DNA from: an uncultured Pseudomonadales bacterium
Lineage (GTDB): Bacteria; Patescibacteriota; Microgenomatia; UBA1400; PJMF01
Direction of reading: 5' to 3'
NCBI GenBank assembly: GCA_964457085.1
Contig: CAYWDM010000002.1
Span: forward strand, 203,418-267,417
Length of the DNA: 64,000 bases
Shown here: one piece after another, positions 25,606 through 59,923 of the stretch
How positions within the stretch are numbered: the first letter of the stretch is position 1
How the letters are laid out: every line of letters starts with the position of its first letter
The notes under the pieces: generated by a model
Seen by the model: only the letters and a program-made list of their open reading frames with translations
Told to the model about the DNA's origin: nothing
The model's database searches: none
Position numbers and translations under genes: made by a program

Positions 25606-25742
25606 TCAAAACATTCCAATTTTGTGTATTTAGACTGTATTTGTTGTGGTTGGTAAACAAAAATACTTGCTTGTAAAACAATGGTACCTTTGTCTGACCA
25701 GATGTTTGACAGACGAACAGAATATGCCCACAATGGGTGTAG

Positions 25743-29848: not shown

Positions 29849-31039
29849 ATGTTGGCACATTTTTCTAGAATTTACCGATTAATTTGTGATTTTTTCACAA
29901 CTGAAAGACGCTATATTTTAGGGCTGTTTATAGTGTCGAGACTCTTTTTCTTTGTGAGTGCATATATCTTGCCACAGTTTGTGATGAAGGGACCTTTTCC
30001 TGAGCAAATATATGACGGAAATGGCATTTTTGATTATTTTATTTTTTGGGATGCAAATTGGTATCAGGTAATTGCAAAGCAAGGTTACTCATTGGTAATT
30101 GGTGGCCAATCAGCCACTGCTTTCTTTCCCTTTTATCCATTACTTACCCGATTAGCTAGCTATATTTTTGTCGATTATAATTTTTCACAGATACTGGTTT
30201 CAAATGTTTCCTTTTTGTTGGCAATGAATGTGTTGTACAAATTGGTGTTGGATGAAAGTAAAAATAGCACAACTGCACGCTTATCATTGATTTTTTTGAG
30301 TTTTAGTTATGGCACGCCTTGGTTGGCTACTGGATATAGTGAATCACTTTTTCTATGGCTAACAATCAGCTACTTTTACTACGCAAAAAAAGATAAAAAC
30401 ATATTGGCGTTTATTTTTGGATTTTTAACTGGCATAACCAGAGGTGGTGCAATATATAGTCTGCTTTTGATTGCAGTAATGTATTCAAAGAAAATGTTTA
30501 CTATCAGCACAAAAAAATTCTTGATGGTATTACTTGTTTCAATTGCTCCATTGATTGGTTTTGTTGCATATTTATTTTTTCTACAACTCGCAGTTGGGGA
30601 TTGGCGAGTTTATTTTCAGACGAACCAGTCTGGTTGGGGGGCAGTGTATACATTCTCACTTGAAGTGATTAAGCAAAAAATCCCGTTGATTGGGTATCAG
30701 TTGGTTACTGCTGATCCACATTTAAATTTTATTAACTGGTCTTGGTTAGGGATGAGTTTTTTTGCAGGACTGTCCATAGTTGTCTTGCTGTGGAAGAAAA
30801 CTGCACTTTGGTTGCCAGCATATATCCTTTGCTTTATTGGTTTTTTTCTGTTCACGCTTCAACGAGAGGGTCTAATGGACTCAATGGCCAGATACTCGAT
30901 TACTGTTTTCCCGATATACTATGCGTTGGGTATTGTCAGCACTCACAGTGAGTTGTTTAAAACTGTGCTGCTCTCACTATTTGTGATGGCTCAGTCGCTA
31001 ATAACAATTATGATTTTTACTGGATACATTGTTAACTAA
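29849..31039 (+). CDS. polytopic membrane protein, possible mannosyltransferase-like glycosyltransferase
   Basis: 396 aa with at least 9 TM helices and aromatic-rich loops; there is no soluble domain. The function is a guess. Confidence 0.35.
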   Translation: MLAHFSRIYRLICDFFTTERRYILGLFIVSRLFFFVSAYILPQFVMKGPFPEQIYDGNGIFDYFIFWDANWYQVIAKQGYSLVIGGQSATAFFPFYPLLTRLASYIFVDYNFSQILVSNVSFLLAMNVLYKLVLDESKNSTTARLSLIFLSFSYGTPWLATGYSESLFLWLTISYFYYAKKDKNILAFIFGFLTGITRGGAIYSLLLIAVMYSKKMFTISTKKFLMVLLVSIAPLIGFVAYLFFLQLAVGDWRVYFQTNQSGWGAVYTFSLEVIKQKIPLIGYQLVTADPHLNFINWSWLGMSFFAGLSIVVLLWKKTALWLPAYILCFIGFFLFTLQREGLMDSMARYSITVFPIYYALGIVSTHSELFKTVLLSLFVMAQSLITIMIFTGYIVN

Positions 31040-31677: not shown

Positions 31678-33105
31678 TTAGGGAGTAGCTGTTTCGGCGA
31701 TAATATCGTCGATTATCTTGTCTACAGAAACGGCACTGCTGGCCATTCCATCAAGATTCAGAGAAATTCGATGTTGCAAGGCGGGGCGAATGAAAGCTTG
31801 AATATCTTCTATTGAAACCGTGGTCCTATTATCCAGCAATGCACGTGCTTTCGCTCCACGTATGATGGCATGTTCACCACGTACTGAAGCTCCAATTTCG
31901 ACATATTTTTGTACTGAGGCAACTGTTGATTTTTTTGGGTGAGTGTTGATTAAAATTTTGCCAGCATATTCAATTAACTTTGATGAAACTGCGATGCTTT
32001 CAATAGTTTTTTGAATAGCTAGTACGTCTTTTACATTGGCTAGTTGTTGGTGTTTTTCATTGTTTTCTCCAACTAATGTTTGTCCAATTATTTGGTTTAA
32101 TACTGATAACTCTGGCAAGTCCAAATGTACTATGAAACCAAATCTGTCCAATTGAGCTTCAGGTAAGGGATATGTCCCAACACTACCATGATTGTTTTGA
32201 GTAGCAATTACGAAAAAAGGCCTGGGTAGGGAGCGCATCCTACCATTTGTTACTTGCCTCTCTTCCATTGCTTCGAGTAGTGCAGCTTGTGTTTTAGGAG
32301 TGGCTCGATTAATCTCGTCAACTAATACGATATTTGCAAATATTGGTCCTTTTTTAAACTCATCGGCATTTTTAGTGCCAGCAGCTCCATGCATTGAAAA
32401 ACCGAGTATGTCTGTGGCCATTAGATCTGGGGTACATTGTATGCGAGTAGATTTTAAGCCTAATATTTTTCCTAATGATTTAGCTAGTTTTGTCTTACCC
32501 AGTCCTGAATTACTCTCTAGAAGTACGTGCCCTCCAGTAAATAAGGCGATGAGAACTAAACGTACTGCCTCCTCCTGACCGATTAGTATTTCATTCAATT
32601 TCTTTTCGACAGTTGCTATTTTTTGAGTTGCTTCTTTGTAGTTAAGCGGTGCCTCATTATTTGACCCAGTTTCCCACTCTTTAAATAAATCAAGGTATGA
32701 TTGCAAAAGCGAAAGTAACTGAGTTAGTTTATCTACAACCTCTGAAGTATCTTCTGTTTTTTTAGGAAATGTGGATTCCAGTTTTCCATCAAAGACTTCT
32801 GCTAACTCAGCAGTATTAATAAGCTCATCAATCTTGTCGATAGCTGTATGAATTATTTTTTCATATAACGCTATTTTTCTTTTGTCTCGTGCAACTTCAA
32901 TGTTACCAATACCTTTGGTTGCATCTTCATACAGATGCAGTGCTGACGCAAAGGTACCACCATCATTGGTGAATAGTTTTTCCTCAAGTACTTCAATCAG
33001 GTTCATAACACTTTGTGCACCTTCAACTTGCAAAGAGTTTATATCTATTGCAGCCTCAATTTGCTGTATTTGCTGTTCTACCTCTGGTCTCATATACAGT
33101 ATCAT
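31678..33105 (-). CDS. MoxR-family AAA+ ATPase with ~170-aa N-terminal coiled-coil extension
   Basis: Walker A NSGLGKTKLAKSLG, RIQCTPDLMATDILG, and Walker B/sensor VLVDEINRATPKTQAALLEAMEERQVT. Confidence 0.8.
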   Translation of the reverse strand: MILYMRPEVEQQIQQIEAAIDINSLQVEGAQSVMNLIEVLEEKLFTNDGGTFASALHLYEDATKGIGNIEVARDKRKIALYEKIIHTAIDKIDELINTAELAEVFDGKLESTFPKKTEDTSEVVDKLTQLLSLLQSYLDLFKEWETGSNNEAPLNYKEATQKIATVEKKLNEILIGQEEAVRLVLIALFTGGHVLLESNSGLGKTKLAKSLGKILGLKSTRIQCTPDLMATDILGFSMHGAAGTKNADEFKKGPIFANIVLVDEINRATPKTQAALLEAMEERQVTNGRMRSLPRPFFVIATQNNHGSVGTYPLPEAQLDRFGFIVHLDLPELSVLNQIIGQTLVGENNEKHQQLANVKDVLAIQKTIESIAVSSKLIEYAGKILINTHPKKSTVASVQKYVEIGASVRGEHAIIRGAKARALLDNRTTVSIEDIQAFIRPALQHRISLNLDGMASSAVSVDKIIDDIIAETATP

Positions 33106-33186
33106 CGTAGCATTTTAAAAATTGAAAAACTACCAATAATCGACAGCAAGTGGTGGTTTGATTGGGATAATCTAGCTATACTGTTG

Positions 33187-36100
33187 ATGATAATGACCGA
33201 AAAAATTAGTATATTTGTTGGCAATAAACTGGCCGAGTTGGGTCTAAAACCACCTAGTTTAACTGATGGATTACTACTTGCTGATGATCCCATCCTGCAT
33301 CGTCATGTCAAACAGCGGATTCGACATAGGTTGGAAGAGAGCGGACAACCACTAAGATCATCGGAAGTTGATGCTGTATTGTCTAATGAAACCTCCATTT
33401 ACTTGATCGAAGAGGTCGAGTTGGAGAGTGTTGACTTTCTAATTGCAAGTGAAAAACTACACAAGCCAGTTTTTGAAAAGATACTGAGGAACATAGCACA
33501 TTTAGACTTTAGAAGTTTTGCGAGTGCACAACAGAGTGAAATCTCTCTTTATGATCCAGAGGTGATTACACCTCAAGTTTCTTGGGCGGTGGAACAAATT
33601 TTTCAAAATTTACCTGGTTTCTTTGAGTCGTTTGAAATAATGATGCAGCATGATCAGGCTTTTGAAGAAGAGCAAACCGATATTGTTCGCAATATCTTCA
33701 TTATTGGATATCTGCATGGCTTTTTAAGCGAGGAAAATCAGAATTTAACCACAGCCAAAGTATTTTTAGCTCATGCTATTAGAAAAAGTAACTCTGACGA
33801 AGAAAAACTAAAGCCATATCCTGCTTTCTTAAGGAGAATAGTGGATAAAGATGAATCAGCTCAGGTTTCACCAAGACTTGAACATCTAAAAAATCATTGG
33901 CTACAGCAACTTGCTCGTCGTTGGTTGTTGTTGTCCAGAACAGATGAAGCTTCAGCTGACACCTTAAGTCAATCGACCAGACAACAGTTGGATGAGCATT
34001 TACCAAAAGACAGAAGACCCGCTGAGAATAGTGCTGTTGCGAGAAAAATGGATTCATTGAATAAAACGAGAACAACATTTCAAGGTGAAGTTGGTAGCTC
34101 CAACGGAAATGCTGATCAGGGATTTAATGAGAGTGCACAAATTAGAGAAGAACTGCAACTTACGGTTGATGTTGCCCAACAGCAACAGTCGACAATTATG
34201 CACATGAGAGATATCTTGCGTCTCTATCAGGGAAATAACCAAGAAGTTTTTCATAATGGTCATCAAAATACAGAAAAATGGTTGCCATTTAAAGTTGCTG
34301 CAGAACCCATTTTGCAAAAGTTAGTTTTAGGTTTTGGTTTGCTTAACGATTCAAAAAATGATGATGCCAGATTTGATTCTGCCGTGGACACAATTGTTAA
34401 ATCAATGATTCAGAGTTTAGCAAATTCTGGTGATGCCCAACACATCAGAGGGATGTTTGGGGCAGATTTTTTTAATTTGGCTCAAGTTGAACAGCTTTGC
34501 TTACTGTCATTTACAGCTCTTTCTTTTATCAATAGGGAGACCAGTACATCTAAGTTGGCAATTCAAATTTTAGATAGAACGGTTATTCCTCGTCTCAATC
34601 AGTATTTCGATTTAGATCGTTACAAAGAGCTATCAACCGAAAATGTACCAGCCTTCAATTTTTCTACTTATGATCAGCGAGTATATGAAGATAAATCTCA
34701 GCACGCAAAATCAGTACTTGGAGATCTGCAGCCAGCTGATGAATTAGTGGGTGTTGATAGTGCTGTTTTTCGGCAGTTGCTTGAAAGAAATAAACAACAA
34801 TTATCAGGTGTCTCCAAGATTTATTCTTTATTTGCTTCACTAACCAGTGAAAACTGGGGAGAACATACGAAGCCGCATACAATAATCTTAGGCGAGATTT
34901 TTGTGATGACGGCTTTTATTTCTGGTCATCTCAACTTTAATTTATCTGAGAGTTTATTAACTGAATCATTAAAAACAATTTTCTCTGAAGACCCATATCT
35001 CTTTTTATTGAAAATAGCCCCAATACCACTAACACTGGCAAGTGGAGCTCTATTGATGGGTGATAAGGCTAGGAAAGACTTTAAGAAATTATTATTATCT
35101 TCTTCAGAATTAAAAAAAGATCTAAAGAAATTTTCTAAAGGTGGATGGAGGCAGATTGCGATGATGCTCATGTTAAGCACATATGCTTTGAGTTCAACCT
35201 TTCCTTTATGGCAAAACCAAGCTGATGAACTGTGGGATTCTGCCAAGGATCGTTGGGAAGAGCTGTTCGATGATGATGAGGTAGTAGAAGGAGAAGATTC
35301 TACTGATGGTATGAGAAATTTTTGGGAGGATAGAAATCCTGAGGCAGTTGATGCCAATGATTTGCTGGACATAGAGAAAGTTGACTGGGGAGAAATTGCA
35401 ATTGAAGAAGACGTGTATGGTAAAGATCCTAATGCCCCAATAGGTTTTATAAACACTTATGTTGTTTCTCCTATAGTAGCTGAGTCTGAGGATCAACAAT
35501 ATAACACTGAGTCAAACATGACTGATTTTGACGCCTTATCTAATGCAGACGATATTATCGTAAATGCGAGTGGCTATGTAATTAGAAATGACGAGATTGA
35601 ATTTACACTTGCAAATGGCGATACCTACATTCAACCTGCTGCAGGTGCAGATTTTGTTGTTAAAAATGGCATAGTTAATGGTCATAATTGGTTTGCAAGA
35701 TTCTTAGAAACAGGCAAATATCTTGACAAAATTATTGTTGTGTCAAAACCTGACAGCCCGAATAATTTTTTCTCCAATGGAGAATTGTTTAATAGATATG
35801 ATTATCCTGACCGATATGTAGCTTCTCTTACTGAGAGTCATGATGAATATTTTGTGGTATATAAAACAAATCCAGATGCTGCAAACGAATTGAATCGATA
35901 TAAGTTGCGACTTGATGAAAATTTAGTCTTTTGGCAAACTCATGCTGCAGATCGAGAAATTGCCCTGACAGTTTTAGAAAAAGAGAATCCAGCAGCAGCA
36001 GCTCTTTATGCACAAATGTTAGCAGAACAGAACCTATTCTGGGCAAATTATGATCCTCAGAATAATCATGAAATTGACTATCTTAAAATGATTGATAAAC

Positions 36101-37389
36101 AGATAACTGCGTATACTCTTTTTGTAAAAACTAACCATGTATACAGTCTTAAATACAAGCCAAAAACGAATTATGCAGAGAAGTATCCTGATGTCGGCGT
36201 TATGCTCGATGTGATGGCACTTAAAAAAGGTGGCTATTATTGTTTAACTGCACATTTGGCTGCACAGGAATGGTTTCTTTCTCTAGGAGTTCCGATGGAT
36301 GGTTTGTATGGATATCATATATATGATGATGCAGGCATGGCTAGATCACGCATTGGTCATGTTCAGACTGGTATTTATGGAGCAGTTCATGATTTTACTC
36401 CTTCCACTCCAAATCCTGGAGAAGATTTACGAGCATTAGATTTCAATAAAAATACTGCTGTGAGTGGACAATTAGATACTCAGGCTGTTGAGCAACCCAC
36501 TATTGTCGATTTATTACAAAAATTTGCAAACGTTGATAATTTATCACTACTTATTCTTTTGTTATCGACAGTGGGAGTTGGATATTCCATTAAATTGGGA
36601 ATACAACAAGCAATGGGTAAAACCACCAAAGATGACTTTGATACAGTAGAACAAGTTAAAAATATTTTGCCCGATACTGAACTTGCATTGAGAGGTTTAA
36701 CCTCGGCATTACTGCAATTATTAAATTTGATTGCAGAAGTTGATCCATCATTTCCAGATAGTGAGGATGGCAGTAAAGACCGAAGGCAGATACTTTCGCA
36801 AATTGTTACGGAGAGTTTGATTTTGGCAACCAAACCCTCAAACACGCAAGCTGAAATATCTAGCAGCATGTCAATGAATCCCGAGGTACTTGCATTGCTG
36901 CAGTTAGTGGGATTAGGTAATGGTACATTGAGTGAGAATGCTCGAGAGCAAGTGGAAAGTTTATGGCAAAAACTCAATAGCAATCAAAGACAGACGAAAC
37001 AGCTACTACAAGAAGTTCTTGGATTACTGGATAGCATATCAACCAACTTCGGAAAAGCATCAGAGATCAAAAGGAAACTGGTGGGTAAGTCAGTGAGAAA
37101 ATTACAAAAGCAACTGATGAGAACGAGAAAAAAAGAAAATAGAATATATGGCATGTATGGTGCATTTTTAGAAAAATCACACTTGGCAAAAGATGAGAAA
37201 ATCAATGAACTTAGAAAATCAATTACTGCAGATTATTTAGCCATTCATCATCAATTAGAGCAACAAAGTAATGAGTTACAACAACTAAACACGCAAGCAA
37301 AACTATTACCTACAAATGTAAAAAGTCTCAAAAAAGTTTTGAGGTTTATGCTTAACCATAGTACAGCACACGACATAGCTCATGAATAA
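33187..37389 (+). CDS. giant hypothetical protein (1401 aa), MoxR-associated
   Basis: The track ORF begins at 33013, inside the divergent MoxR gene. The start is revised to ATG 33187 (MIMTEKISIF), the first ATG after the MoxR start. No recognisable catalytic motifs. One hydrophobic segment (LSLLILLLSTVGVGY) and a C-terminal coiled coil. Confidence 0.55.
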   Translation: MIMTEKISIFVGNKLAELGLKPPSLTDGLLLADDPILHRHVKQRIRHRLEESGQPLRSSEVDAVLSNETSIYLIEEVELESVDFLIASEKLHKPVFEKILRNIAHLDFRSFASAQQSEISLYDPEVITPQVSWAVEQIFQNLPGFFESFEIMMQHDQAFEEEQTDIVRNIFIIGYLHGFLSEENQNLTTAKVFLAHAIRKSNSDEEKLKPYPAFLRRIVDKDESAQVSPRLEHLKNHWLQQLARRWLLLSRTDEASADTLSQSTRQQLDEHLPKDRRPAENSAVARKMDSLNKTRTTFQGEVGSSNGNADQGFNESAQIREELQLTVDVAQQQQSTIMHMRDILRLYQGNNQEVFHNGHQNTEKWLPFKVAAEPILQKLVLGFGLLNDSKNDDARFDSAVDTIVKSMIQSLANSGDAQHIRGMFGADFFNLAQVEQLCLLSFTALSFINRETSTSKLAIQILDRTVIPRLNQYFDLDRYKELSTENVPAFNFSTYDQRVYEDKSQHAKSVLGDLQPADELVGVDSAVFRQLLERNKQQLSGVSKIYSLFASLTSENWGEHTKPHTIILGEIFVMTAFISGHLNFNLSESLLTESLKTIFSEDPYLFLLKIAPIPLTLASGALLMGDKARKDFKKLLLSSSELKKDLKKFSKGGWRQIAMMLMLSTYALSSTFPLWQNQADELWDSAKDRWEELFDDDEVVEGEDSTDGMRNFWEDRNPEAVDANDLLDIEKVDWGEIAIEEDVYGKDPNAPIGFINTYVVSPIVAESEDQQYNTESNMTDFDALSNADDIIVNASGYVIRNDEIEFTLANGDTYIQPAAGADFVVKNGIVNGHNWFARFLETGKYLDKIIVVSKPDSPNNFFSNGELFNRYDYPDRYVASLTESHDEYFVVYKTNPDAANELNRYKLRLDENLVFWQTHAADREIALTVLEKENPAAAALYAQMLAEQNLFWANYDPQNNHEIDYLKMIDKQITAYTLFVKTNHVYSLKYKPKTNYAEKYPDVGVMLDVMALKKGGYYCLTAHLAAQEWFLSLGVPMDGLYGYHIYDDAGMARSRIGHVQTGIYGAVHDFTPSTPNPGEDLRALDFNKNTAVSGQLDTQAVEQPTIVDLLQKFANVDNLSLLILLLSTVGVGYSIKLGIQQAMGKTTKDDFDTVEQVKNILPDTELALRGLTSALLQLLNLIAEVDPSFPDSEDGSKDRRQILSQIVTESLILATKPSNTQAEISSSMSMNPEVLALLQLVGLGNGTLSENAREQVESLWQKLNSNQRQTKQLLQEVLGLLDSISTNFGKASEIKRKLVGKSVRKLQKQLMRTRKKENRIYGMYGAFLEKSHLAKDEKINELRKSITADYLAIHHQLEQQSNELQQLNTQAKLLPTNVKSLKKVLRFMLNHSTAHDIAHE

Positions 37390-40300
37390 TCAGGAATTTT
37401 TATCAGTTGAACCAGAAGGTAAGCAAATAGATACTGCAGTGGATGCAGCAGCCTCTGAGTCTGATATGTTGGAGCTTAAAATTGCTGAAATTTTGGGTCA
37501 ATCCTCTGTAGATTTTATTGAAAAGACTGTTTCTGAACATTTGGGAGATGGTTATGAAAGCAATGACTTAGGACTTGTTGAAAAAATTAATTTAATTTTA
37601 ATCTTAGCTTCAAAAAAGAAAATAGTTGTCTCATCTGGATTACTACGAGCTGTAAAGAGTGTCACTACTATTTTGCCGAATGGTCAAATTGATATCGAGT
37701 ATCTAATCCATCTAAAAGGTGAAAAAAGAAAACACTTATTTCAAGTTATAAGTTCATTGATTCTATTGCTTGGATTAAGTTTCGGTGTCGGAAATGAATT
37801 AGTTGGTCGGATTCAAAATACGGAGAATCGAAATAAAGTTGAGTTGTCAGCAAGTGCGGTTGATGATGAGAATGCTAAGGCATTGGAGTCACGAACTAAA
37901 TTTGAAAGACAATTTAGTAGTGATCTGGAGACTGTAGTGGCAGAGATGGGATGGCAAGACTTCTTAGGTGAATATACCAAAGAAAATAATGAGAGTGTGT
38001 GGTCATCAGAGGAGGTTTTCCAGTTGTTGCGCACACAAGAGCCACGGTATTGGGGTTATTACATCATCGCTTATCCAAATACTTTTGTCGAAGCTGTTGA
38101 TACTTCACAAGTATCACAAGTTGAGTTTATGAGTTCGTGTGGTGATGTCCGCTTTTTCAGTTATTTACAGACTCAGATGGGTGGTGACGTTACTTGGCTT
38201 GATTTGTGGAGTGCTGATGAATTGTTCGAAACACTTAGAATGACAAACCCAAATTGGGGAAAAATAGTGGCAAATAATCAGGTGTTATTTGTTGGTGTTT
38301 TGGATAGAGAAGATTTGACACCACTGGTTCACATGCTAGCTCCTACTGCTAATTCTGCAGATATGCACTATTTCTTGAGAGATTACGAAAACGACTGGGA
38401 TCAGACATGGTCAAGGCGAGAACTTTTAGATGCAATGAAGGCAGACGGTAGTGTCAGCTGGGGGTTCTATGTAAAGCGCTACATGCACCTTTTTGCGAGC
38501 GACATAACCGAAGAAGAATTGTCGGAAGTTATAGAGGATATTTCATTTAGCAGTTCAGGTCTTTACCCTAGCACAAATGACTTAGCATTTTTTTCTGACT
38601 ACTATAAATTGCAGCTTTATGAGGTCGTTGATCCTGCAGCATTTGTACGACTTATTGAAACACATTTTAGCAAAGAAATTGCAGCTCAAATTCTTGCTAA
38701 TTATCCAGAGTTAAATCAATTAGAGCAAAGTAACATTGAGCGATTATTTGAAACTGAAGCAATTAATTATGTATTAGATAACTATGCTCAGTGGGAGTCT
38801 GTATATCCAATAGTAGATATCATGACCTTTTTACGGGACAGTGACCAGAAATATCATTACGCTTTAATTGTGCCGCATCCAGAGTTGTTTCAAGAAATAT
38901 CATTCACTGATGATGAGGTTGTCTTACTTGCTTTTCGAAACAATTTTATGGAAACAACTGGTGAAAAAAAGAAATTTTTTCACAACTATCAGGGACAATT
39001 TGGCTGGGAAAATCAAATTCCTGTGGAGAGAATGCTGAAACTTGGAAGAAGTAAACCAGGTGACGGTATGTATACTGCCGCTCTTTATTTTCCAGAAATA
39101 TTTTTACCTCATTTCACGGATGAGGATATGTATCAATTAGTGCTTTCAAATTCTATTGATTTAGAAGAAGTGGATGTTTTACATTCCACAAATCCAATCT
39201 GGAAACCTTTTACCACTGTAGAGCGTAGGCACACGATGCTTGAATTAGCAAAAAATGATACTGAGCAAGATTGGGAAGAGTTGGTGGCTTCTAGATTCTA
39301 TTTTTTTGAGGATATTTTGACTTTTGATGAAGCAAAAGATATTTTGAGTAAGTATCACTCTAGTACCATTAGAAATAGTCCGCTTTGGCAGAACAACGTA
39401 ACTCCTGAGTGGGAATATTCTTTTTTCAAAGAATCAAATGAAGATATTTTTATTCATTTAATTGCCAATGATCCTGTCTATTTTAGTGAGCAACTTACAG
39501 AAGGTGATAAGTTGTTGGTGTTAAAAAATAAACCAGAGGTAATATTAGATAATTATCTTTTTTGGCAAAAGTTTTTTTCACCAGAATTTATCTTAGACTA
39601 TTTTTACAGTGGTCAGAGTGCGGAGAATTATGGTTATTTTGTTTTAAGAAACAAACACATATTTGGGCATGTTTTTTATAACAGTGGATATGATTTAAAA
39701 AACTCAATTATGCATGGTGGATTAGATACCCTGTTTGATACTAACTATGATACCGACCAATATTACTATGAGGAGTGGTCCGAGTTCGTAAGCATTGAAG
39801 AATTGTTTTACATACTGGAAGGATTTGAAGATGGCAGAGTGAAGATACTTACCAGACCAAACTTATTCTTTGAATTTGTTGAGTTTTCTGACCTAAACCA
39901 GTTTGTGCAAACTGAACATTGCATTTCAGCATTACTAGGTAGCTATGACGATTGGCAGGAGTTATGGAGCTTTGCAGATATCTATGAGGCTGTTAAGGCT
40001 ACTGATCCAAGTTATTCGGCATTCGAACTATTTAGCAGTGATTATGCCGAAGATTTTATTAAATTGACTAGCCATGATGATTTACAATTTTTGATCAGGT
40101 CATATCCTGATGACCTCTCGTATATATTTGGGAGTAACTTGGAAATACTCTTGAAAAAATGGACTGCTGAAGAAATATTAACGGCTCTAAAACAAGAACA
40201 TCCAGATACCTGGGGTGCATTCGTAACGGATGGAATTGTACATTTTGATGCGTTATTATCGCAAAGTGATTTAGAATCGCTGATCGCTCATGGGGCAAAT

Positions 40301-40594
40301 CCGGCTGGATTAATGGAGACTGGTTTGTGGGAGGTAGACGAAGTCTTTGATGTCTATAAAAATAATTTCCCTGAAAAGTGGGGAGAAATTATTCTTACTA
40401 ATAGTGAAATTTTCATGGAGGAGGTTATTCGAAGAGACGTGTCATTACAACAGCTACTTGAGTTTACAGACATTACTATCGCATACGAATATACATACTA
40501 CTGGAGAGATGTCTGGTCAGAAATTGAGATTGAAGACGCTCTGCATGCAGTGTATGGAGATGCACTTCCAGTATATGATGAGGCAGCTGGTTAA
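37382..40594 (+). CDS. giant hypothetical protein (1070 aa) built from ~12-14 degenerate ~75-aa tandem repeats
   Basis: The start overlaps the upstream stop (ATGAATAA). Repeats follow the pattern [D/E]E[V/L]F..L....P..WG..[I/V]...P.LF.E........L (e.g. EEVFQLLRTQEPRYWGYYIIAYPNTFVEAV, DELFETLRMTNPNWGKIVANNQVLFVGV, EEILTALKQEHPDTWGAFVTDGIVHFDAL). The protein is acidic and aromatic-rich. Confidence 0.6.
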   Translation: MNNQEFLSVEPEGKQIDTAVDAAASESDMLELKIAEILGQSSVDFIEKTVSEHLGDGYESNDLGLVEKINLILILASKKKIVVSSGLLRAVKSVTTILPNGQIDIEYLIHLKGEKRKHLFQVISSLILLLGLSFGVGNELVGRIQNTENRNKVELSASAVDDENAKALESRTKFERQFSSDLETVVAEMGWQDFLGEYTKENNESVWSSEEVFQLLRTQEPRYWGYYIIAYPNTFVEAVDTSQVSQVEFMSSCGDVRFFSYLQTQMGGDVTWLDLWSADELFETLRMTNPNWGKIVANNQVLFVGVLDREDLTPLVHMLAPTANSADMHYFLRDYENDWDQTWSRRELLDAMKADGSVSWGFYVKRYMHLFASDITEEELSEVIEDISFSSSGLYPSTNDLAFFSDYYKLQLYEVVDPAAFVRLIETHFSKEIAAQILANYPELNQLEQSNIERLFETEAINYVLDNYAQWESVYPIVDIMTFLRDSDQKYHYALIVPHPELFQEISFTDDEVVLLAFRNNFMETTGEKKKFFHNYQGQFGWENQIPVERMLKLGRSKPGDGMYTAALYFPEIFLPHFTDEDMYQLVLSNSIDLEEVDVLHSTNPIWKPFTTVERRHTMLELAKNDTEQDWEELVASRFYFFEDILTFDEAKDILSKYHSSTIRNSPLWQNNVTPEWEYSFFKESNEDIFIHLIANDPVYFSEQLTEGDKLLVLKNKPEVILDNYLFWQKFFSPEFILDYFYSGQSAENYGYFVLRNKHIFGHVFYNSGYDLKNSIMHGGLDTLFDTNYDTDQYYYEEWSEFVSIEELFYILEGFEDGRVKILTRPNLFFEFVEFSDLNQFVQTEHCISALLGSYDDWQELWSFADIYEAVKATDPSYSAFELFSSDYAEDFIKLTSHDDLQFLIRSYPDDLSYIFGSNLEILLKKWTAEEILTALKQEHPDTWGAFVTDGIVHFDALLSQSDLESLIAHGANPAGLMETGLWEVDEVFDVYKNNFPEKWGEIILTNSEIFMEEVIRRDVSLQQLLEFTDITIAYEYTYYWRDVWSEIEIEDALHAVYGDALPVYDEAAG

Positions 40595-48091: not shown

Positions 48092-48811
48092 TTATTGCTG
48101 AAAACTCCAGTCAAAACCGTATTTGAGCTGTCGTATGATCTCTCGTAGAAACACGATCGTCATCATAGTCCACAGCACTGCACCGCTAAGGAACCAGAAA
48201 TGCGGGAAGACTGCTGAGGCACAAACAAAGCCAACGCCGATGATCATTATCCAGCCGTTACCATCATCAGTGCTGTCTGAGTCAGTATCCGGAATTGTGT
48301 CTCCCGCATAATAACTCGAGTAATAGAGGATTTGGTTCGCCGCTCTACCACTGATGGTGCTGTCGTATGAATAGACCTCTTGTCTGGGGCCATTTTCAGT
48401 CAAGAAAACGCCCACCAGTGTTGAGGACACAAGAAAAATGACTAACATGAGCATGGTAGCCCATTCAGTCACTTCTTCGCGATATGTAAACCAATTTGTG
48501 AACACCAGGATAAGTGTCACGAAAATGGCACAAATCGCGGCATATATCCAGACAGGTGTGTTAAACCATGTCGAGGATATTTTGTTAAATCCGGTTACAA
48601 AGATCCAGAACCATCCCAACGATCCCATGCAAACGAATCCAAATATCAACGAGCGGATGCCGTCAAATGGAGCTAAAGCTTTTTCAAGCCGCTTGCTGAA
48701 TCGTTTGTAAACTTTCATGGTCTCTTTGAAGAGATGTGAAAATAGGGGATATAGAACTGGAACAAGTGCCGGCAATGATGTTGCACAAATGGTGAGTAGA
48801 ATGTCTGACAT
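48092..48811 (-). CDS. polytopic membrane protein, hypothetical
   Basis: 239 aa with at least 6 TM helices. Confidence 0.5.
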   Translation of the reverse strand: MSDILLTICATSLPALVPVLYPLFSHLFKETMKVYKRFSKRLEKALAPFDGIRSLIFGFVCMGSLGWFWIFVTGFNKISSTWFNTPVWIYAAICAIFVTLILVFTNWFTYREEVTEWATMLMLVIFLVSSTLVGVFLTENGPRQEVYSYDSTISGRAANQILYYSSYYAGDTIPDTDSDSTDDGNGWIMIIGVGFVCASAVFPHFWFLSGAVLWTMMTIVFLREIIRQLKYGFDWSFQQ

Positions 48812-49131
48812 TAGATTACCTCCATGTAATCTGGTTTTAATTTTGATTATGATTTTGATTGCAAAAATAGCCTCGAGACAGACAGTACTTTTTATATCTG
48901 CCTTGTGGCTATTTCTGCTAAGAGTGTTCAGCTGTTAATGTGCCAAGATATTTGTTGTTTGAGTAGAAACATATCTGTCGCAATGACGGAGCGCTCCAGA
49001 TCAAACACTATAATGATACAGATTTACGTCTCAATTGTCAATATTATAGGCTTATATTTAGCCTCGGCCTTGTGTGAGAGTCAATTTCTAACAGCTTTTT
49101 AGTGAATGCCAATTGAAACTTACCGTACATT

Positions 49132-49911
49132 ATGGCTATCATAGAGCTTGAGGAAAATAATATGGGTGAAGCTCCAGCATATGTTCCAGAAGATGAAGTT
49201 GCGTCGTTACCTGATGTAGATGATGGTTCTGTTACTGCGGCTGGTGAGGCAGCTGCTGTTTTGCCAGATGTGGATGGTGATGCTAATCCAGATAAATTTG
49301 CTGAGTATAAAGATAAAGGGAGAGATGTTTATGATGCTGCTTGGAATGCACTCCAAAAGCGAATGCAGGCAATTCGTGCCCGAATGACGACGGCTTCGGC
49401 GAGAGAGATGGGCCGTGAGCTTATGGGGCAGGCATTTACCGTTCCTGCACGACTTGAGACAGCATGGCAGTCTGGTCGAACACGTTTAGGTGAAATCATG
49501 ACCAGTTCTGACGGTAGAATTGGTTCAGCTCGGGCAGGTTTTAATCGAGCTCGAGAGGCAATTTCTAGTGGCGTTTCTGATCGACTGGCAAGTATCCGTG
49601 CGAGTTCTGCAGAACGATCAAAGGCTAAAAAAGAAAAAAATGCAGCAGAATTTACTCGAATTCGCCAGGAACAAATTGATCGATTGTTGGGTAAAGTGAC
49701 TGATCTACGTGCGGAGCGCGATGCTAAAAATATGGAGATTATGCAAGCTGCTTATGCAAAAGTAAAAGAGAATCGAGCTGAGTATCGAGGAAAGATCGGT
49801 GAGAGTCAAAAAGCGATCGCTGAGCTACAGGCAAATACTTCTGGAAATGTAAACAGCTTAAATCACATGGCTTATGATTACTCGAATACCTATATTATGC
49901 ATCCAGTGTAA
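49132..49911 (+). CDS. hypothetical alpha-helical protein
   Basis: 259 aa with an acidic N-terminus and an R/A-rich helical region; local GC is higher than neighbouring sequence. Confidence 0.45.
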   Translation: MAIIELEENNMGEAPAYVPEDEVASLPDVDDGSVTAAGEAAAVLPDVDGDANPDKFAEYKDKGRDVYDAAWNALQKRMQAIRARMTTASAREMGRELMGQAFTVPARLETAWQSGRTRLGEIMTSSDGRIGSARAGFNRAREAISSGVSDRLASIRASSAERSKAKKEKNAAEFTRIRQEQIDRLLGKVTDLRAERDAKNMEIMQAAYAKVKENRAEYRGKIGESQKAIAELQANTSGNVNSLNHMAYDYSNTYIMHPV

Positions 49912-49936
49912 TTTATTCTTGAAAAGAAACTAATAC

Positions 49937-50299
49937 ATGACTGATACCAATACCAATTTACCTCCACCAGTTGAGAAAAAAAGTTTTCTTGCAGGGATAC
50001 AGGCTGCAGCATTATCAGACGATATTAAAGTTGTGATGCAAAATTGGGTTGTAGACCAACCTGGGGAAACACTGAGTCCAGATGATATTCGCATCTTTTT
50101 GATGGAACTGACGGAGATCGAGCAAACTGCGGCCAATACTCTCTCAGATGCCAGACGAGAATTATCTAGGGCGGCGGAGGATGAGGATAGAATTGATGAG
50201 CGTGAAACCATTGAAGAGCTCGAAATCATGCACAGCACGCTACGAGATGGCGAACAACAAGTTGCTTTGCTGGAGCAACTCACTCAAAGCCCAGACTAA
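49937..50299 (+). CDS. hypothetical acidic protein
   Basis: 120 aa, downstream of the previous ORF on the same strand. Confidence 0.4.
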   Translation: MTDTNTNLPPPVEKKSFLAGIQAAALSDDIKVVMQNWVVDQPGETLSPDDIRIFLMELTEIEQTAANTLSDARRELSRAAEDEDRIDERETIEELEIMHSTLRDGEQQVALLEQLTQSPD

Positions 50300-50302
50300 C
50301 TT

Positions 50303-50944
50303 TTATCTCTCGATTACACCTCGAAAAATATAGCCGACTGTCTTGTTGTCTACCACGACAGGCACAATGACTTCTTTGCCCCCGGTATACATGATGAAAT
50401 CTTGCCACATCAAAATTGGTTGCTGCTTGAGCAAGTAATTTGCCAGATCATTGCGTACAGTGTCGTCAAAACTGAAGTGACTGAATGGTTGCCCATCATG
50501 CAATGAACGAAGCTGGTTATATTTACCAGATGCTTCGATGAGCTCGTAATCACCATTGGTAATTCTGACATAGGCAACTGCTGATGAATCTTTTAGTTGA
50601 TTTACATCGAGCTTGGCCAGCTGAGTAATGGCCGCAGGACAGCTGATATCGGAACTTTTCTGGACAACTGACTCGAGTGACTGCTGCTTCTCAAGGGTTT
50701 TTTTACAGTCATCAAAAGTGTTTGTGAATAGCTCTAGACTTGCTGCCTGTTTATTACCAACTAAATCAGTAGTTTCTTTGGTGTACCGATCAATGATTAC
50801 TTTGCGGCGTTGCTGATTGAAATACAGTGCTCCTGTGATGGCAAAGCCTACAATAATCACAATCAAGGCAAAGCTAGTGAGGGCAGCTTTTAATGATAAA
50901 TTATCACTGGGATCTGGGGTGACGAGGGTATATGGTTCTGACAT
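50303..50944 (-). CDS. single-pass membrane protein with extracytoplasmic domain, hypothetical
   Basis: N-terminal TM (LTSFALIVIIVGFAITGALYF). Confidence 0.5.
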   Translation of the reverse strand: MSEPYTLVTPDPSDNLSLKAALTSFALIVIIVGFAITGALYFNQQRRKVIIDRYTKETTDLVGNKQAASLELFTNTFDDCKKTLEKQQSLESVVQKSSDISCPAAITQLAKLDVNQLKDSSAVAYVRITNGDYELIEASGKYNQLRSLHDGQPFSHFSFDDTVRNDLANYLLKQQPILMWQDFIMYTGGKEVIVPVVVDNKTVGYIFRGVIER

Positions 50945-50946
50945 GT

Positions 50947-51252
50947 TTATTTCCGTTTCTGTTGTCGAGATTCGTCAAGAATACGGCCAGCATATTCTGC
51001 CAATCGTGAAACATTAAGCATAATATTTATTAATGCGGACGACATAATTAAAACCAAGATGGAAGCACCAAAAAAGTAGAGTATTTTCTCGAGAAATGGA
51101 GGAAAAATATCCCAAGCAAAAATACCATTGGCAATGAGTAAAATGCTGCCAAATGCTAGTGTGGTAGTTAGGGCTACCACTAGTGAGGCAGTGATGCGCT
51201 CGAGAAAAGTGCGGGACATAAAAGTTCTCCTTAAATTCATTATAGCTGACAA
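50947..51252 (-). CDS. small membrane protein
   Basis: 101 aa with two or three TM segments; a 2-nt gap separates it from the downstream gene. Confidence 0.45.
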   Translation of the reverse strand: MSAIMNLRRTFMSRTFLERITASLVVALTTTLAFGSILLIANGIFAWDIFPPFLEKILYFFGASILVLIMSSALINIMLNVSRLAEYAGRILDESRQQKRK

Positions 51253-51300: not shown

Positions 51301-51651
51301 ATGCACTCACAACCAACAGCAATTAACTCATTTGCAGGGCTCAAGACTGATGACTCGCTGTTGCAATTGATGAAGTCATTTCCAATTGGTTGGGTAGTCT
51401 ATATCCTCGAGTGTGAGGATGGCAGTTTGTACACTGGAGTTTCCAATGATCTGGCAAAGAGACTGAAGACACACATCACAGGTCGAGGTGCCAAATACAC
51501 CAGAAGTCATATTCCAACTCGACTGGCATATGTTGAGCCACGTCACAGTCAGTCTGATGCATTGCAGCGTGAAGCAGAGATTAAGCAATTTCCCCGAGAG
51601 AAAAAACTCAAGTTAATCCGTGCACTCACTGCAGTAGCTTCAAAATTCTAA
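51301..51651 (+). CDS. GIY-YIG nuclease domain protein (UPF0213-like)
   Basis: GWVVYILECEDGSLYTGVSNDLAKRLKTH is a GIY-YIG motif. Confidence 0.8.
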   Translation: MHSQPTAINSFAGLKTDDSLLQLMKSFPIGWVVYILECEDGSLYTGVSNDLAKRLKTHITGRGAKYTRSHIPTRLAYVEPRHSQSDALQREAEIKQFPREKKLKLIRALTAVASKF

Positions 51652-55927: not shown

Positions 55928-56015
55928 GGAGAGGTCGCATAGTGGCCTAGTGCAGCAGTTTACTAAACTGCCGTATCGCAAGATACCCAGGGTTCGAATC
56001 CCTGCCTCTCCGCCA
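55928..56015 (+). tRNA. class-II tRNA, Ser-like paralog with atypical anticodon loop UUACUAA (anticodon ACU); CCA encoded
   Basis: Acceptor GGAGAGG/CCTCTCC, the same D arm as the tRNA at 25251, anticodon stem GCAGT/ACTGC, a 16-nt variable arm, and T arm CAGGG-TTCGAAT-CCCTG followed by GCCA. Confidence 0.65.
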
Positions 56016-56027
56016 GATAAAAACTAA

Positions 56028-56052
56028 GCCCGCAATAGCGGGTTTTATTTTT
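56028..56052 (+). terminator. terminator after tRNA
   Basis: gcccgc-aata-gcgggt is followed by tttattttt. Confidence 0.7.
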
Positions 56053-56056
56053 ATCT

Positions 56057-56170
56057 GATGGAACTTGGAAGTGACTTCCTTAAATCCTGCCGGCAAGCGA
56101 ATTGGTGTTATTGGTGGGGAACTAAACTAACAAACGCCTGCCTAATGCCGGAACGGCCAGCCTCTCCGCA
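56057..56170 (+). repeat. element B: conserved structured repeat (GATGGAAC-GGAAGtgaCTTCC-CCTGCCGGCAAGCGAA...CTGCCTAATGCCGGAACGGCC...GCCTCTCCGCA)
   Basis: Shares a conserved core with elements A and C; compensatory changes relative to C support RNA helices. Confidence 0.55.
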
Positions 56171-56252
56171 ACCATTGGTTTCCATCAAAATAGCAGCTTT
56201 ATTTGATGCCAGTGCTATACTTTCACTTAAGTACTATTTTATTTCTTTTTTT

Positions 56253-56462
56253 ATGTCAGAAATATCTCGATTTCAAGGACTAAAGCTTAAAGACTTAAGC
56301 GATGCTGATGCTGAGAAAGTATTGGTTGAAGCAGGTTTCCCAGCCGGAAGTGCAAGAATAGCTAAGTCAGGATGGTCGGGCAATACTGAAGTGAATCCAA
56401 TAGCATTAGCGACGCTTTTGGCTGGAGCTATAGCAGAAGCTGAAGCACAGTCACACAAGTAG
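56253..56462 (+). CDS. small hypothetical protein (69 aa)
   Basis: The track ORF from 56058 overlaps element B, so it is trimmed to the first downstream ATG (MSEISRFQGLKLKDL...). Confidence 0.35.
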   Translation: MSEISRFQGLKLKDLSDADAEKVLVEAGFPAGSARIAKSGWSGNTEVNPIALATLLAGAIAEAEAQSHK

Positions 56463-56550
56463 ACAGCTGGTTAGTTATTTTTCGCTGTTAACGCTCGCGT
56501 TATTTCTGCGTGAATAAATCACCACTCTTAGCTAAAATATTTCCAACAGC

Positions 56551-56600
56551 TACCCAGGCACTCCGCCAAGTACAGAAAACCCGCGTATGCGGGACTTTTT
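56551..56600 (+). repeat. degenerate copy of tRNA 3' end plus terminator preceding element C
   Basis: tacccaggcactccgccaag matches the tRNA T-arm/acceptor (acccagg...ctccgcca); it is followed by cccgc-gtat-gcggg and acttttt. Confidence 0.5.
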
Positions 56601-56606
56601 GTACTT

Positions 56607-56706
56607 GATGGAACAAGGAAGAGACTTCCATAAATTCTGCTGGCAAGCGAACGGTGGGGAAGGTATATAAAACGTCTGCCTAATGCCAGAATGGCGTGCC
56701 TCTCAA
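56607..56706 (+). repeat. element C: second copy of structured repeat
   Basis: GATGGAAC-GGAAGagaCTTCC-TCTGCTGGCAAGCGAA...CTGCCTAATGCCAGAATGGCG-TGCCTCTC. Confidence 0.55.
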
Positions 56707-57509: not shown

Positions 57510-57690
57510 GTGGTAAATCTTTGGCTGAAATCGTTTCAACAGTCGACCACGCTTTTTACCACTTTTCATTGAAAAAATGAATAGGTTCTTAAGTACTGCT
57601 CCAGGCAATCTCTGTCCCCTCCATATTATCAGTGCATGATGGGGTCCAAGAATTCTTATGAATTTATCTAGATTTTTTCTAATTTATTTT

Positions 57691-58443
57691 TTATTCATTA
57701 AAAAGTTCGATGGGGTTAATTTTGAACTGGAGCATATTGGCAGTATTCCTACCACCATCACCACCTTTTCGCTGCATTGTTACTTTACCTATTTTAAGAC
57801 TTCCTAAATGAGTTACTACAACATCACCTTTACTATATGTGTTCAAAACAGAATTCATGTTTTTAAGAACCCATTTTGTACTATTTCCCACCTTAACTGC
57901 AACAAGCATCCAATTGGCAGAAAACTGTCCATTTCCCTTTAAAATATCGGCAATGACAAGAGTTTTTTTATCTGTAAAGAATGTTACGACTGCAGCTTGC
58001 TCTTCAAAAGAGAGTTCATTTAAAAATACTCGTCTCTCATCTCTTCCTTTAATACTTGGGGCAATTTCACCAGTGAATCTCATTAATACATTCTCTATCT
58101 GAATAGGCATATCCCACATTGAGACATAATTCTTAACCCATCTCTTATCTACTTGATTAAATCCGGTTGGATTACTCACCAGTTTTATGGAAATATTTTG
58201 TTCATCAGCAACTTCTTTAGAGGAAGTAGTTATCTGAACTTGAACATCAGTCTTATACCCATGAAGTTTGATGGCAATTATTTTTTTAATTTCAGCCAAC
58301 TCATATCCCATTATTTTCAACCACACTTGTGCGTCATGATCAGATTTCCAGTTATTGAATTTAGCAACGATATCATCCTCATTCGAAAAACCATTTTTCG
58401 CTGTAGTTGATCCTAGTTCAATCAGTGCATCTTTATTTCTCAT
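57691..58443 (-). CDS. putative type II restriction endonuclease (cognate to adjacent C5-methyltransferase)
   Basis: Immediately downstream of the dcm-like gene on the same strand, overlapping it by 11 nt. No homology could be verified by eye. Confidence 0.45.
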   Translation of the reverse strand: MRNKDALIELGSTTAKNGFSNEDDIVAKFNNWKSDHDAQVWLKIMGYELAEIKKIIAIKLHGYKTDVQVQITTSSKEVADEQNISIKLVSNPTGFNQVDKRWVKNYVSMWDMPIQIENVLMRFTGEIAPSIKGRDERRVFLNELSFEEQAAVVTFFTDKKTLVIADILKGNGQFSANWMLVAVKVGNSTKWVLKNMNSVLNTYSKGDVVVTHLGSLKIGKVTMQRKGGDGGRNTANMLQFKINPIELFNE

Positions 58444-59437
58444 TTGTATTCTTTTCTACTGTTATTATTATTTGATTAAGAATCGCTTTTAAAACATCAA
58501 CTACAACACTATTGCCAAATTGCTTATACGCTTGAGCATCGGTAACCGGTATTTTAAAATTTTCTCCAAATCCCATTATATTTGCACACTCTCTTGGAGT
58601 TAACTTTCGAATTAAGCCATCGATCAGATATGCTCCTGTCTTACTTGCGGCACCACCGCCATACGCAGAGAATGTAATTGCATGGCCAAGTGGACTATAT
58701 ATCCGCTCTCCTTGTCCACCCTTGCCAATGGTACCAATTCTAATGGGTTTTTGTGGATATTTACCATAAATATCTGGGAATATCTCAACATTCTTAAGTC
58801 TTATGTCATCTCTCTTAATAATACATTTAGCATTTTGGTCAACTTTTTCAAGAAAATCCAACACTTTATGATGCGAAACAATTGGATCTGGATAGGTGAA
58901 GTTCTTTATTCCCAGATCCTTTCTAAAGCAGATTATGTAGATTCTTTCTCTTGCTGTTGGAGCTCCATAATGACTAGCGTTAAGAACCTTATGGTTAACA
59001 TCGTAACCAATTTCTTCTAAGGTTTTCACAACTGTTTGAAGAGTTTTCCCATTATCGTGTTTACCAAAGTTCTTTACATTCTCCAAAAATAATATTTCAG
59101 GCTTATGCTGTTTGGCTATTCGTGCAATATGAAAAAATAATGTTCCACGAGTATCTTCAAAACCTCTTCTTTTGCCTGAAATGCTAAATGCCTGACAGGG
59201 AAATCCAGCACATATGATGTTGTGTTCTGGAATTGTTTTCTCGTCAACTTTTGTAATATCTCCGTCAGGATTGTCGCCATAATTAGCAACATACGTTTTC
59301 TGTGCAAATGTATCCCATTCAGATGAGTAAACGCACTGCAAACCACGCGATTCCAATGCTGCTCTAAAACCACCTATACCTGCAAACAAGTCGATGAACT
59401 TTGCACTTTTTATATCAAATTTATTTCGATTTTTCAC
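58433..59437 (-). CDS. DNA (cytosine-5)-methyltransferase
   Basis: Motif I FIDLFAGIGGF, motif IV GFPCQAFS, motif VI ENVKNF, and a C-terminal QFGNSV. Confidence 0.9.
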   Translation of the reverse strand: MKNRNKFDIKSAKFIDLFAGIGGFRAALESRGLQCVYSSEWDTFAQKTYVANYGDNPDGDITKVDEKTIPEHNIICAGFPCQAFSISGKRRGFEDTRGTLFFHIARIAKQHKPEILFLENVKNFGKHDNGKTLQTVVKTLEEIGYDVNHKVLNASHYGAPTARERIYIICFRKDLGIKNFTYPDPIVSHHKVLDFLEKVDQNAKCIIKRDDIRLKNVEIFPDIYGKYPQKPIRIGTIGKGGQGERIYSPLGHAITFSAYGGGAASKTGAYLIDGLIRKLTPRECANIMGFGENFKIPVTDAQAYKQFGNSVVVDVLKAILNQIIITVEKNTNEK

Positions 59438-59560
59438 TGTAATATCCTACCATGTGGCTTTTTTATTAGTGAAAGGAGACCAAGTGATTCACTCTTGTGA
59501 TTCATGATTCACTGGTTCGTAACTGTGTGTAGAATAATGCCAGAGATGCAAAGTATTTTT

Positions 59561-59875
59561 TTAGTCAGCCTTATCTCGTTTTTTTTCTAAACCTTCAACA
59601 AACGCTATCATATCAGTATCGTTAACTGTCATTCTTGTTTCACGACTTCCACTTCTAATACGTTGGCTTGCCATTGAAATACGCTGACCAGCCATTGCAA
59701 AACGTGATTTATATCCTTCAAATATTCCTCTATTTTTTTCATTCAGTGCTGGCAATTTAAATACTCGTTCTGCCCAAGTAGTCGACGTAAAGGTAATACC
59801 ATCACCATATCTTTCACTCATAACATTTACTATAGCAGCTTGTAGCAATTTCACACCGCGTTTTTCGCCATCACA
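59561..59875 (-). pseudogene. degraded vsr-like (very short patch repair endonuclease) remnant
   Basis: The in-frame upstream extension reads ...IFCDGEKRG (compare Vsr xIFVDGCFWH), then TSTTWAERVFKLPALNEKNRG (compare P.TN..FW..K...N..RD) and GQRISMASQ (compare GWRVLIVWE). The active-site FWH is lost and the N-terminus is truncated by the terminator. Confidence 0.3.
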
Positions 59876-59892
59876 AAAAATCCCGCTGTAGC
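59865..59892. terminator. bidirectional terminator (serves eno on minus strand)
   Basis: aaaaaatcccgc-tgta-gcggga is followed by ttttta. Confidence 0.7.
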
Positions 59893-59923
59893 GGGATTTT
59901 TATACTCTAATAAAACTCTAGCT

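Follow-up and report, generated by a model that had tools for sequence, protein, structure and literature searches.

What process has placed three related, hairpin-forming units beside the serine tRNA (tRNA-Ser) genes of a bacterial genome? The units lie in a 64,000-nt stretch of contig CAYWDM010000002.1 (hereafter the window) and are named A (25536-25593), B (56086-56169) and C (56636-56704); they are GC-rich, 60-90 bases long, and each adjoins a tRNA-Ser gene or a tRNA remnant on its 3′ side. An initial annotation of this DNA proposed that compensatory base changes support two mutually exclusive RNA helices in the units, as in a riboswitch or an attenuator, or else that the units are structured ends of a mobile element. 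The second proposal fits better than the first, because the units are fused to duplicates of tRNA-Ser 3′ ends and are surrounded by displaced tRNA fragments. In the reading preferred here, which has roughly an even chance of being correct, the units are attachment (att)-type junctions that arose from nested, site-specific, duplicative insertions into the 3′ part of two tRNA-Ser genes, and not an RNA switch.

Repeated tRNA 3′ Ends behind Two tRNA-Ser Genes

Downstream of the intact tRNA-Ser gene at each of the two loci (Table 1), there is a same-orientation repeat identical to the 3′ end of that gene. At locus A, the repeat is the tail of unit A, in which 13-15 nt (CCTCCGCTTCCGC(AC)) are identical to tRNA A. 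At locus B, it is the tail of unit B, and exact sites of the repeated sequence GCCTCTCCGC occur at only two places in the 64 kb, namely the end of tRNA B and this tail. The tail of unit C is a decayed copy of the same tRNA B end. In addition, partial tRNA copies in the orientation of the tRNA genes, which would mark earlier junctions, are present at both loci. The fragment at locus A retains the final 17 nt of tRNA A unchanged, and none of 1000 shuffled sequences matched its local alignment to tRNA A. The longer remnant at locus B aligns to tRNA B with p ~0.03; its well-supported part is 56548-56568, which carries a 14-nt deletion in the T-loop, and the stretch upstream is weaker. The anticodon loop of tRNA B (~55959-55965) reads TTACTAA, and a loop-like sequence in the remnant (TTAGCTAA, within 56520-56547) resembles an anticodon loop with GCT. 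This resemblance suggests that the displaced remnant formerly had a GCT anticodon.

The repeated ends and the units follow one another in nested order. Locus A consists of the tRNA, a hairpin with ~60 nt, a tRNA remnant, a second hairpin, module A and its tail. Locus B consists of the tRNA, a hairpin, module B, its tail, an open reading frame (ORF) of 69 aa, a tRNA remnant, a hairpin, module C, its tail, an ORF of 242 aa, a restriction-modification (R-M) pair and the enolase gene. Each tRNA end or remnant has a long hairpin (H_E1, H_A, H_B or H_C) directly on its 3′ side. Two of these, H_B and H_C, are bidirectional rho-independent terminators, and the outer stem of H_C has compensatory changes relative to that of H_B. 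The initial annotation had assigned a GGAAG-NGA-CTTCC mini-hairpin and a CCCGC-N4-GCGGG terminator to each unit; both are present at B and C, but the place is taken at A by an unrelated 18-bp hairpin.

Successive tRNA 3′ ends are 133 and 120 nt apart at locus A, and 156 and ~550 nt apart at B/C. Direct repeats at such short spacing, with no recombinase gene nearby, might also be generated by local segmental duplication behind the tRNA genes, that is, by unequal crossing-over or replication slippage without a dedicated recombinase. This explanation is quite unlikely, because duplication cannot put the same module behind a second tRNA together with that tRNA's own tail. Moreover, units B and C are 83-86% identical but the DNA 3′ of each is unrelated to that of the other, which argues against plain tandem duplication, and at locus A neither insert (E1, or H_A plus module) is a copy of the other.

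Architecture of the Modules and Their Tails

The three units are homologous across the two loci, and the tail of each matches its own locus. From 5′ to 3′, each comprises a 5′ box, stem P1, the linker TAAT and hairpin P2, which together are called the module, and then, after 0-2 nt, the tail. The 5′ box has the consensus (C/T)CTGC(C/T)GGCAAG, with a TGCCGGCA core that is a perfect palindrome in A and B. Stem P1 (GGCAAGNG paired with CNYCTGCC, 8-9 bp) is the stronger local stem and was overlooked in the initial annotation, as were the palindrome and the tRNA origin of the tails. It is kept in all copies while its loop measures 3, 35 and 23 nt in A, B and C, respectively, and in all three it contains an A.C mismatch that would be a G.U pair on the other strand. 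Hairpin P2 has the form GCCR-GAA-YGGC, with one additional pair in A. An invariant 12-mer, CTGCCTAATGCC, runs from the 3′ strand of P1 across the linker into the start of P2 and is found exactly in three places; nothing else in the 64 kb matches the module. Consistent with this, when a covariance model (R1) built from the three units was used to scan the whole 64 kb, the rest of the sequence scored at most 12.4 bits. All sequence strings quoted in the initial annotation were found where it had placed them.

Because module A combines the boxes seen in B and C with a tail of the A type, the conserved part of a unit and its tail have different histories. Two other derivations were considered and rejected. 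The module follows the order of elements in the 3′ half of a class II tRNA, but its similarity beyond the tail is not significant (p ~0.17), so that a decayed half of this kind is unlikely. The tail was not retained as a primer-binding site for a tRNA 3′ end either, because the complementary strand mismatches the terminal CCA.

Table 1. Coordinates of the tRNA genes, tRNA-derived repeats, hairpins, modules and neighboring genes in the window.
Feature	Positions	Strand	Remarks
tRNA-Ser(GCU), locus A (tRNA A)	25251-25338	+	Anticodon GCT; ARAGORN; Rfam tRNA, 51 bits; repeat family D1; final 17 nt, AATCCCTCCGCTTCCGC, are the repeated core
Insert E1	25339-25436	+	19-bp hairpin with GAA loop at 25339-25378, directly 3′ of tRNA A; then ~60 nt with small hairpins
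Displaced decayed 3′ fragment of tRNA A	25437-25471	+	Identical part at 25455-25471; degenerate upstream
Long hairpin H_A	25471-25509	+	18-bp arms, 3-nt loop; inverted repeat I1, 94% complementary; fold -24.8 kcal/mol
Module A	25536-25579	+	5′ box CCTGCCGGCAAG; P1 25542-25550 / 25554-25562; TAAT; P2 GCCGC-GAA-GCGGC 25567-25579; 65 bits
Tail A	25579-25593	+	CCTCCGCTTCCGCAC; exact copy of the final 15 nt of the tRNA A gene region
tRNA-Ser, locus B (tRNA B)	55928-56015	+	Unusual anticodon ACT; ARAGORN; Rfam, 52 bits; 3′ end is the repeated core
Long hairpin H_B	56009-56062	+	25-nt arms; starts within the tRNA B 3′ end; rho-independent terminator 56026-56045
Mini-hairpin, unit B	56067-56079	+	GGAAG-TGA-CTTCC
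Module B	56086-56157	+	5′ box 56086-56097; P1 56092-56099 / 56135-56142; TAAT; P2 GCCG-GAA-CGGC 56147-56157; 93 bits
Tail B	56160-56169	+	Exact copy of the tRNA B 3′ end; family D3
Orphan ORF, 69 aa	56253-56462	+	Between unit B and the displaced tRNA fragment; no family match
Displaced decayed 3′ part of a tRNA-Ser	56520-56568	+	Repeat families D3/D5
Long hairpin H_C	56562-56612	+	Terminator core 56580-56593
Mini-hairpin, unit C	56617-56629	+	GGAAG-AGA-CTTCC
Module C	56636-56695	+	5′ box TCTGCTGGCAAG; P1 56642-56649 / 56673-56680; TAAT; P2 GCCA-GAA-TGGC 56685-56695; 100 bits
Tail C	56698-56704	+	GCCTCTC; decayed copy of the tRNA B 3′ end; family D2
R.HinP1I-like restriction enzyme and C5 cytosine methylase	57691-59437	-	Located after the tRNA-Ser region and before the enolase gene, where GC is lower
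Orphan ORF, 97 aa	59561-59854	-	After the R-M pair

Proposed Insertion at the tRNA-Ser Genes

In the insertion model, each event would supply the tRNA gene with a replacement 3′ end, followed by a long hairpin acting as a terminator, and the old 3′ end would be pushed downstream, where it would decay. Right-hand junctions of one family would join an arm contributed by the element, namely the module, to a core derived from the host, and the variable tail would correspond to the 3′ end displaced from the adjoining tRNA-Ser gene. With an element arm fused to a host core in this way, the tail would depend on the local tRNA and the module would not. The ~550-bp insertion at locus B would have carried the 69-aa ORF as its cargo. 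The insertions would have been made by a tyrosine-type integrase encoded elsewhere, and integrases reportedly have preferred sublocations within tRNA genes. P1 and P2 may have been kept as inverted repeats that bind a protein, as extruded DNA hairpins, or via hairpin-templated mutation. The units, now devoid of a recombinase gene, would resemble decayed cis-mobilizable remnants.

Attachment at such tRNA ends has a parallel in viral contig L256 (13.8 kb), which derives from an unrelated organism. This contig is bounded by a ~56-nt direct repeat (noted at 313-333 and 13717-13737), ~51 nt of which reach to the end of the tRNA-Ser gene, and the repeat is the 3′ half of a tRNA-Ser with the terminal sequence of tRNA B. 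A provirus that had integrated at the anticodon loop would be expected to have such repeats as its attL and attR. Several other viral contigs carry only the 3′ fragment of a tRNA-Ser with these ends. Judged by these sequences, attachment in other organisms makes use of tRNA-Ser genes that have the same 3′ ends.

The existence of decayed elements in which attL and attR are both retained is well established, as is tandem accretion at tRNA 3′ ends, and the terms cis-mobilizable element (CIME) and accretion are used here as defined for these cases (PMC5704250). The two loci share with CIMEs and tandem att repeats the direct repetition of a tRNA 3′ end downstream of the intact tRNA, the displaced fragments in the same orientation and the nesting of the junctions, as well as a remnant without an integrase and variable cargo (the R-M pair and orphan ORFs) adjoining the tRNA. 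They differ from CIMEs in that the units measure 105-145 bp, whereas described remnants measure kilobases; in that two tRNA-Ser genes whose cores differ have the same arm, with hairpins in the arm that have compensatory changes; and in that no cognate integrase or active relative is known and the host is Patescibacteria-like. Downstream of tyrT in Escherichia coli there are 178-bp repeats, each ending in the last nucleotides of tRNA-Tyr. They resemble the present units in being short, in lying behind a tRNA gene and in carrying a copy of its 3′ end, but they are near-identical tandem copies at a single locus, whereas the units described here are interleaved with unrelated DNA at two loci and have locus-specific tails.

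Several observations weigh against the insertion model. The hairpin-plus-module units between repeats (105-145 bp) are far below the size of any described integrative element, and E1 spans only 133 bp. Because the cores of the two loci differ, the element would have had to exist in two variants, or its recombinase would have had to be tolerant. One compensatory change is present in P1 and one in P2, and the P1 stem is kept despite a loop of 3-35 nt, neither of which an att arm needs. No recombinase domain was detected in the ORFs of at least 100 aa that were tested in 19-31 kb and 33-64 kb of the window, and no empty site, circular junction or related element was present in any database searched. 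It is because of the tiny units, the two different cores, the apparent maintenance of the hairpins and the lack of an integrase in view that the model is held only at even confidence. The units were seen in one genome only, and they would represent an unusual miniature form of a familiar phenomenon, with an inferred mechanism of the kind outlined above.

Comparison with Cassette Systems and Small Transposons

The att sites of integrons offer a different parallel. Like attC, the units are imperfect inverted-repeat sites within the range of 60-140 bp, in which the central loop varies and one unpaired position is conserved, and they border small, promoterless-looking ORFs. They could be folded-DNA recombination sites of a tRNA-anchored cassette system comparable to attC/attI, in which small cassettes, such as that with the 69-aa ORF, are captured between copies of the site. 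The ~350-bp segment with this ORF is in fact bracketed by two homologous composites of ~230 bp (tRNA 3′ part, hairpin, GGAAG hairpin, module and tail), which is what recombination of a cassette-sized circle with a resident site would give, and the conserved stems and mismatch around a variable loop recall the architecture of attC. A weak third site is possible at 57588-57627. Unlike integrons, however, the loci are anchored to tRNA genes and have no RYYYAAC/GTTRRRY core of the kind required in R''/L'' and L'/R' boxes and no IntI gene or other integron-type integrase. Only one cassette can be recognized clearly, the third site falls short of significance, no ORF lies in E1 at locus A, and no other array was found in any collection searched. 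Such a cassette system is improbable.

The sequence at 57588-57627, just 3′ of the 242-aa ORF, has a weak likeness to module and tail and to the 3′ part of tRNA B (covariance model E = 0.6; alignment p = 0.34). Either chance or one more junction in an advanced state of decay could explain it.

A broader possibility is that the tRNA-Ser end, long hairpin and module together form the attachment site of an undescribed tRNA-anchored cassette or insertion system whose recombinase reads folded DNA or RNA hairpins, or that module and tail are a new structured RNA matched to the neighboring tRNA; the probability of this pair of alternatives is low as well. Guide RNAs of the IS110 bridge or TnpB type were rejected, because there is no recombinase or nuclease gene and the geometry of the repeats is unsuited. 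Compared with miniature inverted-repeat transposable elements (MITEs) and IS200/IS605 elements, hairpins are present at both ends, repeat lengths differ (10 vs 13-17 nt), terminal inverted repeats are absent, and no transposase is encoded in the window.

Covariation, Folding and the RNA Reading

The compensatory changes on which the initial annotation had relied are few. In the three sequences, a double change is seen once in P1 (C-G in B and C, A-T in A), where unit C also has G.T in place of G-C, and once in P2 (G-C to A-T in C). The long-range helix CYGGCA/TGCCRG, formed by CCGGCA (56090-56095) and TGCCGG (56146-56151) in B and by CTGGCA (56640-56645) and TGCCAG (56684-56689) in C, also has one double change, in C, but A has a C.C mismatch in it (CCGGCA vs TGCCGC). 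The base that changed from G to A in C is matched by either of its possible partners. The covariation score of P1 and P2 was reached by 49 of 500 shuffles and that of the long-range helix by 172 of 500, with only 3 copies in either case; because there are only three sequences, these shuffle controls are without power. A rough estimate of our own puts the triple match between B and C at the order of 10^-2 to 10^-3, calculated post hoc.

Thermodynamic folding does not support the proposed switch. Against shuffled sequences, the z-scores of the minimum free energy are -2.3 for A, +0.16 for B and +0.32 for C, which means that A folds modestly better than shuffled sequences and B and C no better. 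With the long-range helix enforced, the energies are -24.4, -21.1 and -12.6 kcal/mol for A, B and C, compared with -24.3, -21.9 and -14.1 kcal/mol for the local fold. The A.C mismatch in P1 speaks against the + strand and the G.T change in C points the opposite way, so that neither strand is consistently better. Of the proposed pair of mutually exclusive helices, one double change per helix stands; the statistical support is lacking, the long-range helix is mismatched in A, and the alternative fold is not favored. The local hairpins seem to be maintained. The initial annotation had opposed its structural proposal to simple duplicated att sites without conserved structure. Duplicated tRNA ends are indeed present, but the words "without conserved structure" apply only partly, because the local hairpins seem to be maintained.

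A structured RNA, either a small RNA derived from a tRNA trailer or a cis-acting switch in which P1 and P2 alternate with the long-range helix, and in which the tail mimics the acceptor strand of tRNA-Ser, would account for several of these features: a compensatory change once in P1, once in P2 and once in the long-range helix, the doubly matched change in C, the persistence of the P1 stem around loops of such different length, and the GC content of the modules (0.48-0.64) in a genome of ~40% GC. The 7-bp hairpin of module A described below belongs with them. Set against these are the number of copies, the nonsignificant shuffle controls, the folding of B and C, and the P1 mismatch on the + strand in all copies. 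The proposal is also opposed by the placement of the units and by the searches for homologues, and it is unlikely.

In module A, at 25572-25588, GAAGCGG (P2 loop and 3′ arm) and CCGCTTC (tail) form a perfect 7-bp hairpin that reproduces 6 pairs of the acceptor stem of tRNA A. Modules B and C have no equivalent.

The riboswitch or attenuator proposal is not supported by the position of the modules, by their expression platform or by the genes downstream. As in attenuators and riboswitches, two alternative partners are available to the 5′ strand of P2, namely the 3′ strand of the same hairpin and the 5′ box, and one change in C is matched at both. Unlike them, the modules lie outside a 5′ untranslated region, have no terminator or ribosome-binding-site platform, belong to no conserved family and precede unrelated genes. 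B and C stand directly 3′ of rho-independent terminators, with no promoter-like site between terminator and module. The promoter-like sites predicted by consensus scans fall between modules and ORFs (TTGACA-17-CACAAT at 25706-25734; extended -10 TGcTATACT at 56213-56221), and these scans found none 5′ of the modules or pointing through them on the minus strand. The 3′ hairpin, P2, is not followed by a U-tract, and no ribosome-binding site is sequestered, the ORFs starting 75-150 nt beyond the modules. Contrary to what a shared regulatory function would predict, the ORFs downstream are unrelated: a dCache/HAMP sensor at A, the 69-aa orphan at B and the 242-aa orphan at C. The initial annotation could not match the units to a known RNA family, and in Rfam only the two tRNAs pass the gathering score and nothing meaningful covers the modules at E below 10.

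Neighboring Genes

From tRNA B to the enolase gene, the region contains orphan ORFs and a type II R-M pair, and its GC content is 0.34-0.37, compared with 0.40-0.44; this combination is typical of a variable, tRNA-linked region. The part with the R.HinP1I-like enzyme and the C5 methylase is poorer in GC than the DNA on either side. The 242-aa orphan ORF 3′ of unit C has only two remote relatives (37% and 34% identity) among 1.8 billion representatives, both on short contigs without a tRNA or module, and its structure prediction has a pLDDT of 31. A 40-nt similarity in contig L287 lies within an apparent coding extension of the homologue there and was discarded as a chance match.

The possibility that the module is itself coding sequence was rejected: a 134-aa ORF crosses B, but the differences between B and C are mostly non-synonymous (judged by eye), the frame stops after 20 codons in C, and it has no start in A. 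This ORF (56058-56462) reads through module B into the 69-aa ORF. A public gene call on a matching contig has 105 aa (56145-56462) and takes as its start the ATG within TAATGCC of the module; this gene call, which starts inside module B, is probably over-extended.

Elsewhere in the window, the intergenic sequence at 59470-59520 contains repeated GATTCA motifs, and a small ORF with a GIY-YIG nuclease domain (51301-51651, + strand), ~4 kb upstream of tRNA B, is accompanied by several orphan ORFs (48092-51252). No Pfam match was obtained for two neighboring ORFs of very large size, 1458 and 1070 aa (33013-40594, + strand), or for the ORFs at 21811-23277 and 29849-31039.

Search for Relatives and the Host Lineage

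Homologues of the module were found in none of the Rfam, genome, metagenome, viral, phage or plasmid searches. A scan of the genome collection with GGCAAG-N(10-40)-CTGCCTAATGCC gave only chance matches among the matches listed, and recurrent matches to the module pattern in Psychrobacter were rejected because they lie inside a coding sequence. In the metagenome scan, a 22-base version of the pattern gave one chance match, within a ClpP-like coding region (the protein being judged by eye). Three scans of viral contigs with module patterns gave nothing real, and blastn against phages and plasmids gave terminator-like matches only.

The best named relatives of ArgG are from Patescibacteria (Gottesmanbacteria, Levybacteria and Saccharibacteria; 77-79% identity), and the nearest homologue of the sensor protein is 49% identical. 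From these protein similarities, the host appears to be an isolated Patescibacteria-like lineage. In the loci of relatives reached via ArgG (81 and 80% identity) and via the sensor protein (49 and 37%), there is no adjoining tRNA-Ser, no module and no synteny. Contigs from the same samples are identical to the window. They break inside tRNA B, one ending at 55956 and the next starting at 55986, and near 59872-59900, which may be due simply to low coverage. The breaks at 55956 and 55986 flank the segment of the anticodon and variable arm, and may reflect population variation or only low coverage.

Implications

Where only two or three paralogous repeats are compared, apparent compensatory changes make a weak case for an RNA switch, and the flanks of such repeats should first be checked for duplicated tRNA ends. 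A new miniature insertion system with specificity for tRNA ends would be indicated if the hairpin module should prove to be an RNA or a site recognized in recombination. If the units instead are junctions left by nested insertions, they would be a small-scale case of a well-known process, in which tRNA genes act as hot spots of insertion, in a poorly studied Patescibacteria-like lineage, and this process would account for the presence of the R-M pair and the orphan genes behind tRNA-Ser.

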